A DNA stretch of 13,474 bases from Nitrospinales bacterium (GCA_046757665.1 JBHHYO010000071.1:1-13474), one strand, 5' to 3'. Positions 3,739 through 13,474 are shown, counted from the stretch's first letter. A program made the numbers and translations. Notes: generated by a model not told the origin, from the letters alone.

Positions 3739-4641
3739 TTAACTGCTCGGCGCCTGGACATCGAGTTTACCGCCGACAGGCTTGACGCAACGGACACCGA
3801 AAGCCGGATTTTTCAATTCCGGATCGACAAAGTTGCGAAAGGTAATGGTGGCGGTTTCAAGGCCGGAACTCCATCCACCACCTTTCACAATACGCCGGTT
3901 CGTTTCCTCTTTTTCGGAAACCTTGCCGGGAGGCCGTTCGACCCATTCCCAAACATTGCCGATCATGTCCAGCGCCCCGTACGGGGAAGCGCCCAAAGGG
4001 AAGGACCCCACCGGCGCCGCCCGGGCATAACCGTCGTCATCTCCGAGAATGTTAGCGCGGTCGGGAAGAAAATCGTTTCCCCACGGCAGGCGGCTGGAAG
4101 CTCCGCCCCCGGCGGCAGTCTCCCATTCCCGCTCGCCGGGCAGGCGTTTCCCCGCCCAAAGACAATAACGGCGGGCATGTTTCCAGTCGATCCCCATTGC
4201 CGGACACGCGGGACATTTCTTGCCGTCCGTGTAAGGTTTTTCGTCATAAGACGGATCAAACCGTTTGTACTGCTCCACCGTTATTTCCAGGCGGTCAATA
4301 TAAAACGCCGGAAGGCCGCGGGCCGGGTGGCTTTCATGGGCAAGCCGGTTCCGGGAATCCGGGTTGCCTCCCGCGCTCACCAGCACCATTTCGCTTTGGT
4401 CTTTGGGATGGATGATGGAAGGCAACAAAATTTTTCCATGCGAGAAAGAAAACCGCGAGGCAGGAGTGGCCCGCTTTTGCCGCAATCCCCGGGAGAGCCC
4501 GCGCGACGGGCCTTTCTCAATATTTTTTTTCTGTAACCCGTGAGACTTGGAACCCGACGCGCGTTTCTTGAGCTTGCCGGTTCCGCCGGCGCAGGCAAAA
4601 ATCATCAGGAAAAGCAGGAAAAACGCAAGAATTCGGATCAA
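3739..4641 (-). CDS. Formylglycine-generating enzyme (FGE-sulfatase/SUMF1) family lipoprotein, 300 aa
   Basis: Family motifs AFYIDRLEIT, YCLWAGKRLPGEREWETAA, PWG, APVGSFPLGASPYGALDMIGNVWEWV, KGGGW and FGVRC. The N-terminal hydrophobic stretch ends in lipobox IFA-C. The TTG start overlaps the TGA of the upstream TPR gene and has AGAGGA upstream. Confidence 0.88.
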   Translation of the reverse strand: MIRILAFFLLFLMIFACAGGTGKLKKRASGSKSHGLQKKNIEKGPSRGLSRGLRQKRATPASRFSFSHGKILLPSIIHPKDQSEMVLVSAGGNPDSRNRLAHESHPARGLPAFYIDRLEITVEQYKRFDPSYDEKPYTDGKKCPACPAMGIDWKHARRYCLWAGKRLPGEREWETAAGGGASSRLPWGNDFLPDRANILGDDDGYARAAPVGSFPLGASPYGALDMIGNVWEWVERPPGKVSEKEETNRRIVKGGGWSSGLETATITFRNFVDPELKNPAFGVRCVKPVGGKLDVQAPSS

Positions 4642-5060
4642 GAGTCCTCTCGTTCGCCGCGATTGACCAAATCGTCCAGCCTTTTCTTCAAAGACCGGTA
4701 TTTTCGATACCTTTTCTCCGCCTGTTCCATATCGCCCATCATCTCATAGCTGTAACCCAGGCTGTAATAAGCATCGACGTAGGTGGGATCAATCCGCAGG
4801 GCGGTGTTGAAAACTTCCACCGCCCGGTCATACATTTTCTTCTGGTTGTAAATGCCGCCCAACCCCACATAAGCTTGCGGATTCTTCTTGTCGGCTTCAA
4901 TGGCCATGAGAAAGGATTCCATGGCCTGGGCATAATTTCCGTCCCTACTGTTTGCAATTCCCTCTTGCACGTAATCGTTGCTGGTTTTTTCGACGCATTG
5001 CGGTAGAATCAAGAGGGTCGCCAGGGAAAGAAACAGCAGAATCCGTTGTGGCGGTCGCAT
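4638..5060 (-). CDS. Tetratricopeptide repeat protein, probably exported or lipid-anchored, 140 aa
   Basis: About three 34-aa TPR units (YVQEGIA..., AYVGLGGIY...ALRIDP, AYYSLGYSY...AEKRY). The N-terminal basic-hydrophobic signal ends in LPQC, a non-canonical lipobox. Confidence 0.88.
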   Translation of the reverse strand: MRPPQRILLFLSLATLLILPQCVEKTSNDYVQEGIANSRDGNYAQAMESFLMAIEADKKNPQAYVGLGGIYNQKKMYDRAVEVFNTALRIDPTYVDAYYSLGYSYEMMGDMEQAEKRYRKYRSLKKRLDDLVNRGEREDS

Positions 5061-5195
5061 TGGACGATTGCTTTCAGAGCAAAGATTGCAAAAACGGCTT
5101 CGCGGCTGACAAAAGCTCGTTTAACCAATTTCCAATATACCATCAAGCCGGGAATTACGCCAGCAGAGCAACCTGAGCGGCCTACGAAATTTCAA

Positions 5196-6497
5196 ATGGA
5201 CCACATCGTTATCTGGAGCGTCCTGGGAACGGCGCTGATTCTGTGCCTCGGCTATTCGATCCTCAAGAGTTTCCACCTGCTCAAACTCCAATGGTGGAAC
5301 CTTTCCCGCCTGAGCGACCTGAAAAAACGACATGAAGAATCCGCCATCGACCCCGCGGACAAAAAGGCGGTGGGACGGATCATCGACTGTTGCGAATCCT
5401 TGCGAGCCAAATGGATTTTAAGCGAATCCGATCTGCGGCTTTTGGAAAACACGCACCAGTTGGCAATGGACATTGCCGGCGCGTATCACCCCAGCGCGCC
5501 GGCGCCTCTCGCCGAAGCCCGAATCGGCCCGCTGTTGCGCGCATTTCTCGACCTGAAAAACCGCATAACCGGGGCGGCAGAGGCCAAGAGCCTTCAGGCT
5601 TTTACCCAGTTCCGCCTGCGGCACATCCTGTTTCTTGCCCAAGCGTGGGAAAAAAAGAAAGAATGGGAGTCTTCCGCCCCAGGAACTTTTCTAAAAAAAT
5701 ACCGGATTTATGTTCTCGTCCGATGGGCGTATTTTCTGGTTCGCTGGATGGACATCAGTTTTTGGTCCATGAAGATGCTGACTTATCTTCTTTACAATGT
5801 CGTCTTCAAGATTTTTTTGGTCCGCTGGTACTTGATGGTGGGCGAGTTGTCCATAACGGTTTACCGCGAGCGCGGCAAGGGAACGGATATCCAACAGGAA
5901 ATAATCTTTGAAGATTTTGAAGCCATGCCGGACCTCGAGGAAATCAAAATCCCCGATTTGCCGCAGGGAGTCCGAAACATTGTTGATGTTTCCCGGAAAC
6001 AGATTTTATTCAATCCCTGGGCTCTGGAATGGCAAAAGACCCGGGAAATCTACCGCCGGATGGTCGAGGATATCGCCCATTTCCACCACCCCAACGCCGA
6101 TCGGCCAATCTATGAAGCAAAACTTTCCAGTCTGATGGCCGCTTCGGCGCGGTTTGCCGGGAAAGTTTTTTCTTTGCAAAACCTTCCCTTGATCAACAAG
6201 GCGCTGGACCTCAAGGTATCGCATATTCTGTGGGTCAAGGATACCGCGGATATTTTCAAGGACAGCCAATTGGCGGCCTGGCTGAAAAAATATAAACTCC
6301 AGCAGGTGATCAAATATTCATCCCTGATTTTCAAAGCGGTCAAGAAAAGGCATCCCGGATTAATTTTCAAAGATTTTGCTTTTTCCCTGGTCAAGGAAGG
6401 CGGCAAGAGATGGGTCTATCTGTATCTTCACGAAAAAATCGCCGGCGAGGCGAACGCCACTTACCGTGAGGAATCCCGATTTTCTCCAATCACCTGA
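5196..6497 (+). CDS. Hypothetical membrane-anchored protein with an internal 200-aa duplication, 433 aa
   Basis: Long ORF filling the gap. ATG 5196 is preferred to TTG 5046, which overlaps the divergent TPR gene, and it places a TM segment (IVIWSVLGTALILCLGYSIL) at the N-terminus. The internal protein repeat supports coding status. Confidence 0.8.
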   Translation: MDHIVIWSVLGTALILCLGYSILKSFHLLKLQWWNLSRLSDLKKRHEESAIDPADKKAVGRIIDCCESLRAKWILSESDLRLLENTHQLAMDIAGAYHPSAPAPLAEARIGPLLRAFLDLKNRITGAAEAKSLQAFTQFRLRHILFLAQAWEKKKEWESSAPGTFLKKYRIYVLVRWAYFLVRWMDISFWSMKMLTYLLYNVVFKIFLVRWYLMVGELSITVYRERGKGTDIQQEIIFEDFEAMPDLEEIKIPDLPQGVRNIVDVSRKQILFNPWALEWQKTREIYRRMVEDIAHFHHPNADRPIYEAKLSSLMAASARFAGKVFSLQNLPLINKALDLKVSHILWVKDTADIFKDSQLAAWLKKYKLQQVIKYSSLIFKAVKKRHPGLIFKDFAFSLVKEGGKRWVYLYLHEKIAGEANATYREESRFSPIT

Positions 6498-7950: not shown

Positions 7951-9204
7951 TCAGTGTGGTTGTTCCCCGTCATGTTCCAGACCGCGCACCCGGTTGCGTA
8001 CGGCCCAAAGCAGACCCAGGCCGGGCAGGGCTCCGAGAAAAGTGATAAAAAAGAACGCCGCCCAACCGACTTCCTCGACCAGAAAACCGGAAGGTGGGCC
8101 GACAAAAACCCGCCCCAGGGACGCCAGCGCGGACAACAGCGCAAATTGGGTCGCGGTGAATCGATGATTACACAAGGCCATGAGAAACGCCACGAAGGCG
8201 GCGGTTCCCATTCCGCCGGACAAGTTCTCGAAAGCAACGGCGAAGATCATCATGCCATAGCTCTTGCCCCACCAAGCCAGCACCATAAAGGAAAGGTTTG
8301 AAAGCGCCTGCAAGATACCGTAAAGCATCAGGGACCGGTACAAGCCCAGATTTGCCATGAGCGTACCGCCCGCCAGGGCGCCGATGATGGTGGCGGCCAG
8401 CCCCATGCCTTTGTTGATGGCCCCTACTTCGCCCACGGAAAATCCTGCGCCGCGGATCAAAAACGCCGTCGTCAAACTGCCGGCAAACGCATCTCCCAGT
8501 TTGTACAGGACAATGAGCGCCAGCATGGCCCAGGCTCCGGAACGCGAAAAAAAGTCTTTCAGAGGTCCCCGCACGGCTTCGTCCAGGCTACGCGGCGGCT
8601 GGGCCGGTTCTTCCGGTTCCGGACCCAACAGGGTTCCCAAAATGCCCACAAGCATAAAACCAGCCATCAGCAAATATGTCAAACGCCAGCTCATGAACTG
8701 TGACAGGATAAGAGCCAGCGCACCGGAAACCAGCATGGCAATACGGTAGCCGGTAACCGAAACCGCGGCTCCCAGGCCTCGTTCCCTCTCCCGCAACACA
8801 TCGGTGCGATAAGCATCAAAGACAATATCCTGGGACGCGGAGGAAAACGCCACACCCAGGGCCAGTGCCGCCAGAGCCCAGGGCGCACGGTCTGGCGAGG
8901 ACAGCCCCATGGCCACAATAAGGACCGTCAGGACAGCCTGGGTGATTAACAACCATCCCCGGCGCCTGCCCAGCAAGGCAGGCACATAACGGTCCATCAG
9001 CGGCGCCCATAAAAATTTCAAGGTATAGGGCAAACCCACCAGGGTGAAAATACCAATGGTCCGCAGATCGACCCCCGCAACCGTCATCCAGGCTTGCAAG
9101 GTGCCGCCCGTCAACGCCAAAGGCAAACCCGAGGAAAACCCCAGGAGCACCATGACACCGATTCGCCGGTTGGCAAGGCTTTGAAAAGTGGCGGCAAAAG
9201 ACAC
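7951..9204 (-). CDS. ampG: AmpG family muropeptide MFS transporter, 417 aa
   Basis: LLGFSSGLPLALTGGTLQAWM, LKFLWAPLMDRY...GRRRGWLLITQ, FSSASQDIVFDAYR, GYRIAML, LYKLGDAFA and FTATQFALLSAL closely follow E. coli AmpG as I recall it. GTG start with GGGGAGAG upstream. Confidence 0.95.
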   Translation of the reverse strand: MSFAATFQSLANRRIGVMVLLGFSSGLPLALTGGTLQAWMTVAGVDLRTIGIFTLVGLPYTLKFLWAPLMDRYVPALLGRRRGWLLITQAVLTVLIVAMGLSSPDRAPWALAALALGVAFSSASQDIVFDAYRTDVLRERERGLGAAVSVTGYRIAMLVSGALALILSQFMSWRLTYLLMAGFMLVGILGTLLGPEPEEPAQPPRSLDEAVRGPLKDFFSRSGAWAMLALIVLYKLGDAFAGSLTTAFLIRGAGFSVGEVGAINKGMGLAATIIGALAGGTLMANLGLYRSLMLYGILQALSNLSFMVLAWWGKSYGMMIFAVAFENLSGGMGTAAFVAFLMALCNHRFTATQFALLSALASLGRVFVGPPSGFLVEEVGWAAFFFITFLGALPGLGLLWAVRNRVRGLEHDGEQPH

Positions 9205-9580
9205 TTGTTTTACTCTCCCCGCCCTGCTTGTTTCAATCTCCGAACCCGGTTTCGCATTGTCTCTCTGAAAATTCGGTTGCTCAAATGCCCGGTTTCCTGT
9301 TCCGGTATTTTTTATTTTGCCAAAAAATCGCCCAAACCGTTCTGTTTGTTATATTATAAAGAGGGGGTTTATAGCTAATTTTTTTAAGAATTAAAATTTT
9401 TCAAGGAAATCCGTTGTAAAGAACTTGTTAAATAGCCCCGGCAGGCCGATATTATATTTACCAGCCGGAGGAAGCCGACCTTGCGGGCTGACAAGCGTCA
9501 AAAATTCGCTGGGTGGCGCGGTTTTTTCGACTGATTTTAATGAAAAACTCACGTTATCGGTAAAAATCCGGTTAGTTATA

Positions 9581-9653
9581 AAAATTTGACCGCAACTCCG
9601 GAGCGTCTTCCCGCACTGGAGTAAAACTTGGTTTGGGTCAATCTTTTTTTTTT
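9581..9653 (+). promoter_or_regulatory. Nested stem-loop followed by T10 in the leader of the MotB-like gene (candidate attenuator/terminator)
   Basis: Inner stem ACTCCGGAGCG (9595-9605) pairs with CGCACTGGAGT (9612-9622), 10 of 11 pairs, around a TCTTCC loop. Outer stem TTGACC (9586-9591) pairs with GGTCAA (9636-9641). The T10 run is at 9644-9653, 35 nt before the ATG. Confidence 0.4.
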
Positions 9654-9688
9654 GATTTCTTTGCAAAGCTGGGAGTCGGACGATCATC

Positions 9689-11305
9689 ATGCTCAATGGG
9701 GAAAACATTCAATTGGTCAAGGAACAGCTCAGAATCAGGACCCGCGAGCTGAGAAAGCAGGAAGAAGAAAAAATAAAAATCAGCGAAAAGGTGAAGAGTG
9801 TTCTGGCTTTGAACCAGAAGAAAATGCAGGAATTAAAGACCCTTCTTGAAGAAAAAAACGAGGCGCTGGCAACCGCCCAGGCGCGCATGGAAACCATTGA
9901 GGTCTCCGATACAGGCGACGACGCGGGCACCGGCACCCGAGTCAAAGAAGTCGTAGTGCAAGACCCTGCCCTGCTGGCGGAATTAAAGGAACTCCGGGAA
10001 AAAGACCGGCAACTGGCCTTGCAGGTCAATGCCGCATCGACGGAAAAAAGCCGCCTGGACAAGGAAAAAAAGTTGCTCCTCAAAGAAATCAAACGGATGC
10101 GGAAAGACCCCGTCACCACCGAGAACCTGAAAAAACAAATCAAAAAGCTCAAGGGAGAATTGGAGGATCTGCAAACCCGTTCCGGAGAATCCGCCGCCAA
10201 TCTGGAACAGCTCCTCAAGGAAAAGGATGAGATCATCGCTTCCTACGAAAAGATGCTTTACGGTGAAACCGAAGCCGGTCAGGAAGGGATGCTTCCGTCA
10301 GAAATCATCGCCGACCTGAAAACCGAACTGAAGGAACGGCTGGAAGAAAAGAAGCAGATGGTGCAACAAATCGAAGAGTTGACGGAAATGGCGCAAGACC
10401 TGGAAGTCCGGCTTTCCATGGCCAAGGAAACCGACGCGGCGGCCGCTCTCGCCGGCTCCGGTGGGAGAAGCGAGGAAAGCCGGAGCGCCCAAACCGCCGA
10501 ATTCTCCGCCGGCCTGGAAGCTTTCCTCATCACTTACAGCGACATGATCACCCTGATTCTCGTTATTTTCGTGCTCATGTATTCGGTTTCCAAACTCGAC
10601 GAAGAAAGGCTGGCCCAGGCGTTGTCCTCTTTCCAATCCAAGGAATGGCGCGTCGAACACCTGAATGTGCGGCTTAGCAAAAAGGAATTTTCCATGCTGG
10701 AGCGCGTCCGTGAGCTGGTCAAGGACAACATCGATCCCGAGATGTTGAAACGGGGCGACACCCGGACCATCTTGAAACGCCTGCCCAACGAAGAATTGTT
10801 TCTTCCCGGCGAAGCTACTTTTGTGGACGGCGCAGAAAAAACCATTCGCGGCGCTATTCAGGAAGATTTGAAAGACGGCGTAAAACAGGTCATCGTCGAG
10901 GGCCATACGGACGACGTGGATATCAAGTCGGCCAAATTCCCTTCCAATTGGGAGCTGTCATCGGCGCGGGCCGCAAGCGTGGCACGCTTCATCATCGAAA
11001 AAATGCGTTTCCCGGCCAAGTTCGTGATGGTTGCCGGGTTTGGCAAATACCGCCCGCTCAAACCAAATACCAGCGACGAAAACCGCGCGATCAACCGCCG
11101 GGTGGAAATCAAGATTTTAAAAGACGTCAAAGTTCTGGAAGCGGAAGAGAAAGCCAGAAAAGCCAAAGCCCAGGCGGAGGGGAAAACGACGCCAAAAACG
11201 GCAACCGGCAAGAGCCCGGGCAAGACAGGACCGCCCGCAAGCTCTCCGCCAAAAAGCTCCTACGCTCCCCGCCCGACAGGCAGGAGTTCCGGCGCTTCCA
11301 AGTGA
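9689..11305 (+). CDS. MotB/OmpA-family protein with long N-terminal coiled coil, 538 aa
   Basis: Residues ~1-245 are a K/E/L-rich coiled coil. The MotB-type TM FLITYSDMITLILVIFVLMYSVS carries the ion-binding Asp285 (10541-10543). The OmpA-like peptidoglycan-binding domain has VEGHTDD...FPSNWELSSARAASV...GFGKYRP...NRRVEI. The tail is K/P/S/T-rich. GGGAG lies upstream. Confidence 0.9.
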   Translation: MLNGENIQLVKEQLRIRTRELRKQEEEKIKISEKVKSVLALNQKKMQELKTLLEEKNEALATAQARMETIEVSDTGDDAGTGTRVKEVVVQDPALLAELKELREKDRQLALQVNAASTEKSRLDKEKKLLLKEIKRMRKDPVTTENLKKQIKKLKGELEDLQTRSGESAANLEQLLKEKDEIIASYEKMLYGETEAGQEGMLPSEIIADLKTELKERLEEKKQMVQQIEELTEMAQDLEVRLSMAKETDAAAALAGSGGRSEESRSAQTAEFSAGLEAFLITYSDMITLILVIFVLMYSVSKLDEERLAQALSSFQSKEWRVEHLNVRLSKKEFSMLERVRELVKDNIDPEMLKRGDTRTILKRLPNEELFLPGEATFVDGAEKTIRGAIQEDLKDGVKQVIVEGHTDDVDIKSAKFPSNWELSSARAASVARFIIEKMRFPAKFVMVAGFGKYRPLKPNTSDENRAINRRVEIKILKDVKVLEAEEKARKAKAQAEGKTTPKTATGKSPGKTGPPASSPPKSSYAPRPTGRSSGASK

Positions 11306-11310
11306 AAATT

Positions 11311-11339
11311 TTTATGCTACCGGCGTTTTGTAATATAAT
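11311..11339 (+). promoter_or_regulatory. Putative sigma70 promoter for the cyclase gene
   Basis: Perfect TATAAT at 11334-11339 with a weak TTTATG 17 bp upstream, in an AT-rich intergenic gap. Confidence 0.35.
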
Positions 11340-11414
11340 TTGTATGCTAGGAATAAATGGATCGGCGCGGGAACGAGCGCTTCCCGACGGCGGAATCAAA
11401 CCCTGTCTCAAACT

Positions 11415-13472
11415 ATGACCGACGACAAACAATCCATCTCCGAAATCCTGTTCCATAACCGTCAGGCTTTTTTGCGCTTCAACCAGTTTAAAATCAGCCA
11501 GACGCTGAAAACCCTTTCACAAATCGACCGGCTGATCTATATCGCCATCCCCCGCCTTCTGCATGTCAACCACAAGGATTTGCCGGGATACATCAACGAC
11601 AAGGTTCCATGCGGGATTTACAACTATGTCCTGAACCGGGAAACGGAAGAGGTATTGGAAAAACTGTTTCCCGGAGCGATTATTCGAAAAACCAATAACC
11701 GCCCGGCCATCATTCAAACCATGCTGTTAATGGGTAGCGTGGGATCGATCGCGCAAACCAAAAAATCGGACCTGGACTACACCCTGCTGATTCACAAAAA
11801 CGATTACTCCGCCGAAGAGATGGAACTTTTTTCTAAAAAGTTGCGGCTCATCGAAAATTGGACCTGGGACAACTACCACCTGGAAACCCATTTCTTCGTC
11901 AATGATATTGATGAAGTGAGAGAAAACAACTTCGGCGAAAGCGATAGCGAAAGCACCGGCACGGCCATGGCAAAACTCCTGAAAGAGGAAATGCTCCGCA
12001 CCCTGGTCATCGTCGCCGGGAAAATCCCCTTCTGGGCCATTGTCCCGGTGGGCACCAATGATGACTACTACGCCGAACTGCAAAAACAGGTGGTCGAACA
12101 TCGAACCTTGTTGGACCGTGAAGAGTTCGTCGACATGGGAAACGTAGACGACATTTCCCCCGGCGAATTTTTCGGAGGCTCCATTTGGGCATTGATCAAG
12201 GCGTTTGGTTCGCCTTTCAAAACCCTCATGAAAATGGGAGTGCTCGAGGAATACATGTTTAACAACTCCAAGTCCAACTTGTTATGCCATGAAATCAAGA
12301 GAGGCGTGTTTTCCAACAACAAGCCCTTCCTGGAAATCGATCCCTATCTCACGATGTTCGAACGGGTGCAGAAATTTTTTATAGATACCAAAACGCAAAA
12401 CGAAGTTGACGCCCTGCGAACGTCTTTTTATTTGAAAGTGGGAACCCAGATCAACGCGGAGGAGCTGGAGTATGGCTCTTCCAGAAACCAGAAGAAAAAC
12501 ACTTTGATCCAAATGATCAAGGGATGGGGGTGGCCGCCTTCCAAAATCGAGGATCTCAATGACTATAAAAACTGGCCCATGAACAAGAAAGTAGCCCTGG
12601 GAAACCGCATCAACAAGATTCTCATGGCCTCTTACAAAAACATCTCCGATAAAAACAAGAGCCTGGTCTCCAGCGAAAGCCTGATCAACGAAAAAGACAC
12701 CAACCTCCTGGGCCGCAAGTTGTTCAGTTATTACCACAAAGCCAATTACAAGGTCGATAACGTCGGCGGCTTCGTGGACGGCGCCCTTGGAGAAAAGGAA
12801 CTGACCATTTTCTATGATCAATTCAACGTCCGGGCCAAGGGCGTTTGGTACCTGATCCGCGGAAAGACCCTGGCCAACCGGGACCAACTGGACACCGATT
12901 TAATCATTAAAAAAGCCTCCACATTGGAATTTCTTCTGGCTTTCGCAACGTTTAATCAACTATACAAGAAGGACACCTCGATCCTCCTGAGAGCCGACCA
13001 AATGTCCTTCAATGATAAAGACGTTTACAACGCCCTGGAAAAGCTGTCTTCCTTTATTTCACAAGTCAACATCGCCCATATTTCCAATGAAGACCTGATG
13101 GCCGGCGCCCAGGTCAAACAGCTTTTCATCTTCGCCGATTTCGGCAATCCCTTTCCCAAGGACCTCATGATGGCCGATATCCGCGAATGCAAGACCGCCA
13201 AGGAATATTCCGCTTTTATCAATAAACGGCTGGAGCGCCTCAAAAGTACAACCTACGTTTATTTGAATACCTGGGGAGAACTTTTCTGCAAAACCTTTTC
13301 CGGATTGGAAAGTATGGCCCGGTGCACCAGGGAACTTTCCGAAAAAGTGAGCCTCCGGTTTCTGGAGGAACAAAATTTCCTTAAGGTTTTTATTCCCACG
13401 GGCCGAAAAGAGGACCTGGAATTACCCTGGATGAACAGTTATATTATGTCAGTAGTGTCCGGGGAAAATTAA
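11415..13472 (+). CDS. cyaA: Class I adenylate cyclase (CyaA-like, pol-beta nucleotidyltransferase fold), 685 aa
   Basis: Motifs IPRLLHVNHKDLPGY...VPCGI, MGSVGSIAQTKKSDLD (GS...SDxD), ETHFF, LLKEEMLRT...AGKIPFW, WALIKAFGSPFKTLMK, IDPY, RTSFYLKVG, LGRKL and YLNTWGELF occur in the order known for class I cyclases. ATG 11415 is preferred to TTG 11340. TAA 13470-13472. Confidence 0.88.
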   Translation: MTDDKQSISEILFHNRQAFLRFNQFKISQTLKTLSQIDRLIYIAIPRLLHVNHKDLPGYINDKVPCGIYNYVLNRETEEVLEKLFPGAIIRKTNNRPAIIQTMLLMGSVGSIAQTKKSDLDYTLLIHKNDYSAEEMELFSKKLRLIENWTWDNYHLETHFFVNDIDEVRENNFGESDSESTGTAMAKLLKEEMLRTLVIVAGKIPFWAIVPVGTNDDYYAELQKQVVEHRTLLDREEFVDMGNVDDISPGEFFGGSIWALIKAFGSPFKTLMKMGVLEEYMFNNSKSNLLCHEIKRGVFSNNKPFLEIDPYLTMFERVQKFFIDTKTQNEVDALRTSFYLKVGTQINAEELEYGSSRNQKKNTLIQMIKGWGWPPSKIEDLNDYKNWPMNKKVALGNRINKILMASYKNISDKNKSLVSSESLINEKDTNLLGRKLFSYYHKANYKVDNVGGFVDGALGEKELTIFYDQFNVRAKGVWYLIRGKTLANRDQLDTDLIIKKASTLEFLLAFATFNQLYKKDTSILLRADQMSFNDKDVYNALEKLSSFISQVNIAHISNEDLMAGAQVKQLFIFADFGNPFPKDLMMADIRECKTAKEYSAFINKRLERLKSTTYVYLNTWGELFCKTFSGLESMARCTRELSEKVSLRFLEEQNFLKVFIPTGRKEDLELPWMNSYIMSVVSGEN

Positions 13473-13474
13473 AA

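Follow-up and report, generated by a model that had tools for sequence, protein, structure and literature searches.

How flagellar motors report load, surface contact and energy state to second messengers is an open question, and prior work on it, mostly in Pseudomonas and Caulobacter, has dealt with enzymes that are encoded elsewhere and with contacts that are hard to pin down. The subject of the present analysis is a 13,474-nt stretch of DNA (JBHHYO010000071.1:1-13474 of GCA_046757665.1; hereafter the window) from a member of the Nitrospinales, which are marine nitrite-oxidising bacteria. Within positions 9689–13472 a gene for a stator B subunit with a long N-terminal coiled coil, here named motBcc, is followed by cyaA, a gene for a class I adenylate cyclase, and an original prediction made from this sequence held that the two could form an envelope- or stator-coupled signalling module for cyclic AMP (cAMP). 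The pair was found to belong to a conserved operon, motBcc-cyaA-motA-prp, in which the genes of a flagellar-type stator are interleaved with those of the cyclase and of a pentapeptide-repeat protein (PRP). It is proposed, with somewhat more confidence than doubt, that through this four-gene operon cAMP synthesis is tied to the flagellar motor.

Several described systems share parts with this locus. The flagellar stators PomAB, MotPS and MotAB (solved as 6ysf, 8ucs, 8brd and 8bri, with MotS in 9ljk) resemble the Nitrospinales proteins in a MotA that aligns over its full length and in a B subunit with a transmembrane Asp, a plug and an OmpA-like domain. They differ in that the transmembrane helix of MotBcc begins only at residue 278 (residue 18 in Clostridium sporogenes MotB), so that MotBcc has about 260 extra cytoplasmic residues, and in that here the B gene precedes the A gene with a cyclase gene between them; the cut-offs of the equivalog models for known stators are also not reached. 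In the anti-phage system Zorya, ZorAB is a 5:2 motor of the MotAB type whose long coiled-coil tail reaches into the cytoplasm and signals to effectors there. The tail of Zorya is carried by the A subunit, whereas the Nitrospinales arm is on the B subunit and is accompanied by a flagellar-type MotA and a flagellar genome context.

On the side of the cyclase, the enterobacterial CyaA has the same Adenyl_cycl_N and Adenylate_cycl domains and the same GS...DxD motif. In E. coli the sugar phosphotransferase system controls it by way of the C-terminal domain, a regulatory part that is unrecognisable in the Nitrospinales enzyme, which has only 685 aa and has stator and PRP genes as its partners. Class I cyclases that are fused to pentapeptide repeats (approximately 1250–1400 aa) contain the same two modules that are here encoded by separate genes of one operon.

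The functional likeness is greatest with P. aeruginosa, for which stimulation of the diguanylate cyclase SadC by the MotCD stators (bioRxiv 10.1101/483339) and a load-associated rise of cAMP (PMC6855561) are reported. Flagellar stators thus feed or respond to a nucleotide second messenger in that species also, and the parallel with stators feeding second-messenger enzymes, drawn in the original prediction, is an apt one. The systems differ in that the P. aeruginosa enzymes are encoded elsewhere and the messenger of SadC is cyclic di-GMP, whereas in the Nitrospinales the stator operon itself contains a cAMP cyclase gene and its B subunit carries a dedicated arm. The literature searches returned no description joining a class I adenylate cyclase with MotB, no N-terminal coiled-coil extension of MotB, and nothing relevant for Nitrospina together with adenylate cyclase; in the matching passages of PMC11323537, cyaA refers to a two-hybrid strain. 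No published description of a stator-cyclase operon was found and the arrangement is apparently undescribed.

Gene order of the stator-cyclase locus

The product of motBcc (9689–11305, plus strand, ATG start, 538 aa) was assigned as a stator B subunit of the MotB/PomB/MotS type from its Pfam matches (MotB_plug and OmpA) and its matches to solved structures. The product of cyaA (11415–13472, plus strand, 685 aa) was assigned through the Pfam domains Adenyl_cycl_N and Adenylate_cycl. Both identities agree with those first proposed, as does the description of two co-oriented genes 109 bp apart, with the motBcc stop at 11305 and the cyclase ATG at 11415. It had also been claimed that no clear terminator separates them, and a consensus scan of the plus strand was indeed empty of terminator-like sites throughout 9150–13474. 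The genes are presumed to be co-transcribed.

The window comprises contig C71, in full, of a metagenome-assembled genome (MAG; 2.97 Mb, 160 contigs, 97.6% complete), the relatives of which are Nitrospina and Nitrospinaceae MAGs, and for this reason only half of the operon is visible in it. The assembly is interrupted immediately behind the cyaA stop codon, and public contigs from two DNA runs, which are a possible source of this DNA, end at the same base. A search of sequencing runs listed these two and no RNA run containing the stretch. In relatives, motA and prp lie directly 3' of cyaA. Four MotA_ExbB genes are present in the genome, of which three adjoin TolR/TolA/TolB or ExbD/TonB genes, while the fourth is found at the end of contig C1 and is followed only by a pentapeptide-repeat gene, with a motA-prp overlap of 1 nt. 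The downstream genes on C1, namely those for an FGE-sulfatase-like protein, an Lcl_C protein and alanine racemase, match those of the relatives. It is because of this synteny that the ends of C71 and C1 were joined, and by it the locus of this genome is motBcc-cyaA-[assembly break]-motA-prp. No exact overlap was found between the two ends; a 12-nt inverted repeat (TGTCCGGGGAAA / TTTCCCCGGACA) spans both (the end of C1 being G000:C1:113660-113787), and in both public contig sets the depth over the last 27 nt of the window (13448–13474) is raised two- to fourfold, as expected of a repeated word. It should also be noted that the cyaA-motA spacer of this genome is at least 131 nt in length, against 23–27 nt in four loci of the same family. 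Inspection beyond position 13474, as the original prediction had advised, thus placed the cyclase gene between the stator B and A genes, with the pentapeptide-repeat gene behind them; usual stator B genes, by contrast, directly follow motA.

To place this order among relatives, 120 Nitrospinota genomes were surveyed, of which 94 have cyaA, 79 MotBcc (E ≤ 1e-30) and 70 this MotA (E ≤ 1e-55). Positions were then compared by script in the 82 cyaA-bearing Nitrospinales genomes, belonging to four families (f1–f4), with linkage defined as same contig and strand at a distance of at most 1 kb. MotBcc lies upstream and MotA downstream of cyaA in 56 of the 82; these tallies are counts over related genomes, neither independent events nor a test, which lessens what they can say for a functional tie. 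Linkage on one side only was seen in eight genomes, all of them with the locus at a contig end or with a fragmented cyaA, and linkage on neither side in 18 (ten of genus g10, one of g9, two of g21, and G059, G061, G097, G108 and G091). A first sample had given low MotB linkage (4 of 12 loci); this was dismissed since g10 was over-represented in it and the wider surveys differ. The adjacency recurs in dozens of genomes and exceeds chance, and MotBcc stands directly upstream of cyaA across the four families. Conservation of the gene pair, on which the original prediction had staked itself, therefore speaks strongly in its favour.

Sixteen loci were fetched and mapped by tblastn, 15 of which contain cyaA. 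Thirteen of the 16 have the full arrangement AmpG(-)|MotBcc-CyaA-MotA-PRP(+)|FGE(-). Spacing between the open reading frames (ORFs) was measured in 14 loci and was found to be 24–241 nt for motBcc-cyaA, 9–34 nt for cyaA-motA (13 of the 14) and from an 8-nt overlap to a 10-nt gap for motA-prp. A PRP follows cyaA or motA in all 29 Nitrospinales loci in which downstream DNA is present. Protein identities across the clade fall to 42–57% while the gene order and tight spacing persist. One genome, G059, has an independently rearranged locus that is still linked, consisting of two MotB-like genes (530 and 500 aa), MotA, cyaA and prp, and it was counted in favour of a functional tie. Its two MotB-like proteins have the plug at approximately residue 280–340 and an N-terminal part of similar length that is unrelated. 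A divergent MotB-MotA pair beside FliG in another genome (L057, G061:C12, 1440–5005), its MotA being 53% identical to that of the present genome, is of the same type as the pair upstream of cyaA in G059.

The stretch of MotBcc that comprises the transmembrane helix and plug (aa 275–317, 10511–10639, plus strand; MotB_plug, E 3.6e-13) aligns with residues 18–56 of C. sporogenes MotB. It includes Asp D285 (10541–10543, plus strand), which is invariant in 45 orthologues and which we take to be the ion-binding residue of the stator channel. An OmpA-like peptidoglycan-binding domain (aa 371–470, 10799–11098, plus strand; E 1.3e-13) follows, and then a Pro/Ser-rich tail, and this periplasmic domain aligns with those of solved MotB, PomB and MotS. 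Among solved structures, matches were to C. sporogenes MotB (8ucs, E 4.4e-28; 6ysf, E 1.8e-27), with MotS and PomB also matched. The protein scores below the NCBIfam equivalog cut-offs (MotS 127.8 bits against 264; MotD 121.8 bits against 283), and every named homologue among the best 120 of 410 is from the Nitrospinota.

The transmembrane helix is preceded by 277 residues, against the short cytoplasmic N-terminus that is typical of stator B subunits. From AlphaFold2 helices and orthologue conservation this part is described as a cytoplasmic segmented coiled-coil arm (aa 1–270, 9689–10498, plus strand). Five long helices were modelled (3–72, 93–139, 141–164, 168–191 and 203–252) with low-confidence linkers between them, in a model with a predicted local distance difference test score (pLDDT) of 68.9 and a predicted template modelling score (pTM) of 0.31 for the whole protein. 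Across the 45 orthologues the arm is less conserved than the remainder of MotBcc; it nevertheless contains conserved blocks at aa 1–50, 126–147 and 178–210 and the invariant residues K11, E12, E133, K179, P203 and L210. No Pfam family was found on residues 1–270. A search with these residues alone returned 25 proteins, all with MotB_plug and, where named, all from the Nitrospinota, and a protein atlas search with the arm returned generic coiled coils only.

The cyclase and its candidate partners

The cyclase ORF is open from 11340, and its start is most likely the ATG at 11415, with which the N-terminus fits the orthologue consensus. Adenyl_cycl_N matches residues 15–207 (E 1.9e-48) and Adenylate_cycl residues 237–646 (E 6.6e-69), the latter over profile positions 1–404 of 601. 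As positions 405–601 are unmatched, this protein has no recognisable counterpart of the C-terminal regulatory part of the enterobacterial enzyme. None of the nine NCBIfam class I cyclase models reaches its cut-off (best NF006981, 442 bits against 802). The nucleotidyltransferase motif G107-S108...D119-x-D121 is invariant in 39 sequences. By these domains and this motif the protein is a class I adenylate cyclase, predicted to synthesise cAMP, and 14 matches to cyclic nucleotide monophosphate (cNMP)-binding domains in the genome are possible receivers. In a structural model (pLDDT 77.1, pTM 0.61) the nucleotidyltransferase core is joined by a helical middle and by an alpha/beta domain at the C-terminus. 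Foldseek returned only weak matches with this model, to ANT/AadA-type nucleotidyltransferase folds, with none for the alpha/beta C-terminal domain, and no solved relative came up when the PDB was searched by sequence with the cyclase profile.

A number of observations weigh against a tie between this cyclase and the stator, and they lend a real, if lesser, chance to an account in which cyaA-prp is an autonomous cAMP module within a stator operon timed by FliA, cAMP being made when the motor is made and no contact taking place. The first of these concerns loci from which the stator genes are missing. Loci of g9, g10 and g21 have the form AmpG|cyaA-prp with no stator genes, as does that of G108, which lacks MotBcc and was counted among the loci without a stator gene. 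G061 retains only decayed remnants of MotBcc (aa 341–363 and 380–471) and has no MotA at the locus, and the locus of G097 is without MotA. The retention of cyaA-prp at such loci indicates that the cyclase works without this stator. Of 192 columns without variation among stator-linked cyclases, one differs in the cyclases of g10, against 0–9 in other lineages, so the constraint on the cyclase is just as strong at loci that have lost the stator genes, and the enzyme does not appear to depend on MotBcc. This comparison is weak evidence against a large obligate interface between cyclase and stator, since the invariant columns lie mostly in the catalytic core; no interaction surface is visibly released. 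It should be added that g10 genomes have, elsewhere, a coiled-coil MotB paralogue (31–33% identity) after its own MotA as well as a regular MotAB, and that cyaA tracks flagella even there.

A second group of observations concerns the promoter. The hexamer TATAAT, which the original prediction had remarked near the cyclase gene, is present at 11334–11339, inside the motBcc-cyaA gap (11306–11414, plus strand), where an internal promoter is possible. It recurs in the corresponding gap of all five loci of the same family and of nine of the 15 loci overall, and by this conservation it may give cyaA a promoter of its own. In the consensus scan the gap was empty of sigma-70-type sites.

Third, the evidence from gene fusions for a direct partner of the cyclase points to the PRP, not to MotB. 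Among the best 150 of 1120 class I cyclase representatives, 28 have the cyclase start after residue 360, and all six of the long forms tested (P0269, P0279, P0281, P0299, P0359 and P0309) were found to carry pentapeptide repeats fused N-terminally; one of the six additionally has HEAT repeats. A stator domain was fused to the class I cyclase in none of the 14 proteins tested. Judged by these fusions and by the unvarying linkage of prp, the PRP is the likeliest direct partner and is probably the cyclase's own, and the fusions suggest a general partnership between pentapeptide-repeat proteins and class I cyclases. A literature search for such a partnership found nothing relevant.

Finally, in the other Nitrospinota classes examined no stator was found beside cyaA, the neighbours being genes for thioredoxin-reductase-like, metallo-beta-lactamase-fold, GT2 glycosyltransferase and cNMP-binding proteins. 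In one locus of another class (L066, G011:C80, 1485–5350), the class I cyclase gene is followed by a PilZ gene and then by a YcgR-like gene (PilZNR plus PilZ), which is another hint of a neighbourhood of cyclase and motility genes.

Three features of the locus speak against shared expression alone. The interleaved order of B subunit, cyclase, A subunit and PRP, with cyaA and motA 9–34 nt apart, has been kept across four families; the rearranged locus of G059 still has stator genes beside cyaA; and MotBcc has a conserved arm with invariant residues to which no partner has been assigned. On balance a functional tie of cAMP to the flagellar motor is considered likely.

Flagellar character of the stator

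The genome has a complement of flagellar genes, with FliL, FliM, FliO, FliP, FliR, FlhB, FlhA, FlhF, FlhG and FliA genes on contig C15 and with FliG and three flagellin genes in addition. MotBcc is its sole MotB_plug protein, and the MotA encoded on C1 is its only MotA that is of neither Tol nor Exb type. The best NCBIfam matches of this MotA are PomA and MotP (PomA 199.5 bits, below the cut-off of 341), and its residues 24–272 align with the solved structures 8ucs, 6ysf and 8brd (E approximately 4e-44). A pair of Arg and Glu residues in its cytoplasmic loop, eight residues apart, has its counterpart in an aligned Arg and Glu of C. sporogenes MotA, and these are presumably the residues that contact the rotor.

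A relative of the same family, G020, has two further sets at two sites. In one of them a regular MotAB is accompanied by a response-regulator/HD gene, and the other is a MotA'-MotBcc' set, with a second coiled-coil MotB. The flanks of both are directly contiguous in the present genome (G000:C49, approximately 5823–5903, and G000:C4, approximately 23286–23426), and so their absence is real and not an assembly gap. The present genome, which lacks two of the three sets, is also the smaller one (3 Mb, compared with about 5 Mb). In most relatives a regular MotB (approximately 270 aa) is encoded as well, in a set 15–20 kb from FlhA, in which case the MotBcc/MotA pair is an additional stator set, a circumstance that is likewise unfavourable to a tie with the motor.

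Upstream of motBcc, by 237 nt from its start, there is a sigma-28 (FliA)-like −10 box (GCCGATAT, 9445–9452, plus strand), of which the spacing to the nearest TAAA (−35) is non-canonical. CCGATA, which we take to be the core of the sigma-28 −10 consensus, was found upstream of motBcc on the motBcc strand in 11 of 15 loci and on the opposite strand in one of 15, against a mean of 0.96 and a maximum of 6 in 2000 shuffles. The full promoter form, TAA[AC]-N15-17-CCGATA, was found in four of the 15.

The presence of cyaA was cross-tabulated by hand with that of FlhA in 102 genomes of the four families. Both genes are present in 76 genomes and both absent from 15. Six have cyaA without FlhA, of which five are less than 90% complete and one (G018) is 91% complete, and five have FlhA without cyaA. 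Among the latter, one (G057) has an FlhA truncated by a stop codon and two (G054 and G075) have parts of the module visible at contig ends. FlhA, cyaA, MotBcc and MotA are jointly absent in seven genomes of at least 90% completeness from three genera (G044, G058, G076–G079 and G085).

Taken together, the evidence points to MotBcc and MotA being a flagellar-type stator, for which flagellar rotation is predicted. An ion-driven motor or sensor of the envelope with cAMP as its output, separate from the flagellum, is an unlikely alternative. It would agree with the regular MotAB near the flagellar cluster of most relatives, with a 270-aa arm unlike that of any solved flagellar MotB, with the NCBIfam scores below equivalog cut-offs, and with the position of the locus beside a gene for the muropeptide permease AmpG. 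This gene (7951–9204, minus strand; Pfam/NCBIfam) is divergent from motBcc, or from cyaA at loci without motBcc, in all the Nitrospinales families examined. Against the envelope alternative stand the sole stator of a flagellated genome, with the absence of other sets established by contiguous flanks, the conserved Arg/Glu pair of the MotA loop, the sigma-28-like box, and the absence of the whole set from genomes without flagella. The original prediction had allowed for a general sensor of envelope or wall stress, and that part of it was set aside on the grounds of the sole stator, the sigma-28-like box and the tracking of flagella by cyaA.

That the gene order is a historical accident, synteny inherited within one taxonomic order and functionally meaningless, is very improbable: the arrangement is limited to the Nitrospinales and counts over related genomes overstate independence, but order and tight spacing hold while identities fall to 42–57%, both stator genes are missing together where the locus lacks them, cyaA and flagella are jointly absent in at least three genera, and one rearranged locus preserves the linkage.

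Of the other genes in the window, those behind AmpG, upstream on the minus strand, encode an OmpR-type response regulator and a helix-turn-helix (HTH) protein (Pfam/NCBIfam), and both are also found behind AmpG in the loci of relatives. A 483-aa ORF (5046–6497, plus strand) between a tetratricopeptide-repeat gene and an HTH gene has no Pfam/NCBIfam family and no paralogue in the genome. An FGE-sulfatase-like protein is encoded at 3739–4641 (minus strand), with approximately 28 more tblastn matches across 24 other contigs of the genome, and one such copy is the fixed downstream neighbour of the operon. A small ORF (9391–9708, minus strand) that overlaps the motBcc start was judged to be spurious and matches no Pfam/NCBIfam family.

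A proposed link between motor and cAMP signalling in the Nitrospinales

The following working model is suggested by the gene content. MotBcc and the PomA-like MotA would form an ion-driven stator unit, the only one in this genome, in which the peptidoglycan-anchored B subunit bears a cytoplasmic coiled-coil arm of approximately 270 residues. The cyclase would be made together with the stator and act beside it, and its cAMP output would report stator engagement, ion flow or load; alternatively, it may tune the stator. A more specific version, held only tentatively and more doubtful than the tie itself, is that the arm of the wall-anchored MotB dimer emerges from the centre of the rotating MotA ring and docks the cyclase and the PRP, such that stator engagement or ion flow gates cAMP synthesis. 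If this were true, a single operon would encode a mechanochemical sensor turning motor load or ion-motive force into cAMP.

The presence of a stator and a cyclase in one compact operon provides a four-protein set that could be reconstituted in E. coli. The locus also indicates pentapeptide-repeat proteins as partners of class I cyclases and, for the organisms themselves, suggests that cAMP signalling is tied to motility in the main nitrite oxidisers of the ocean.

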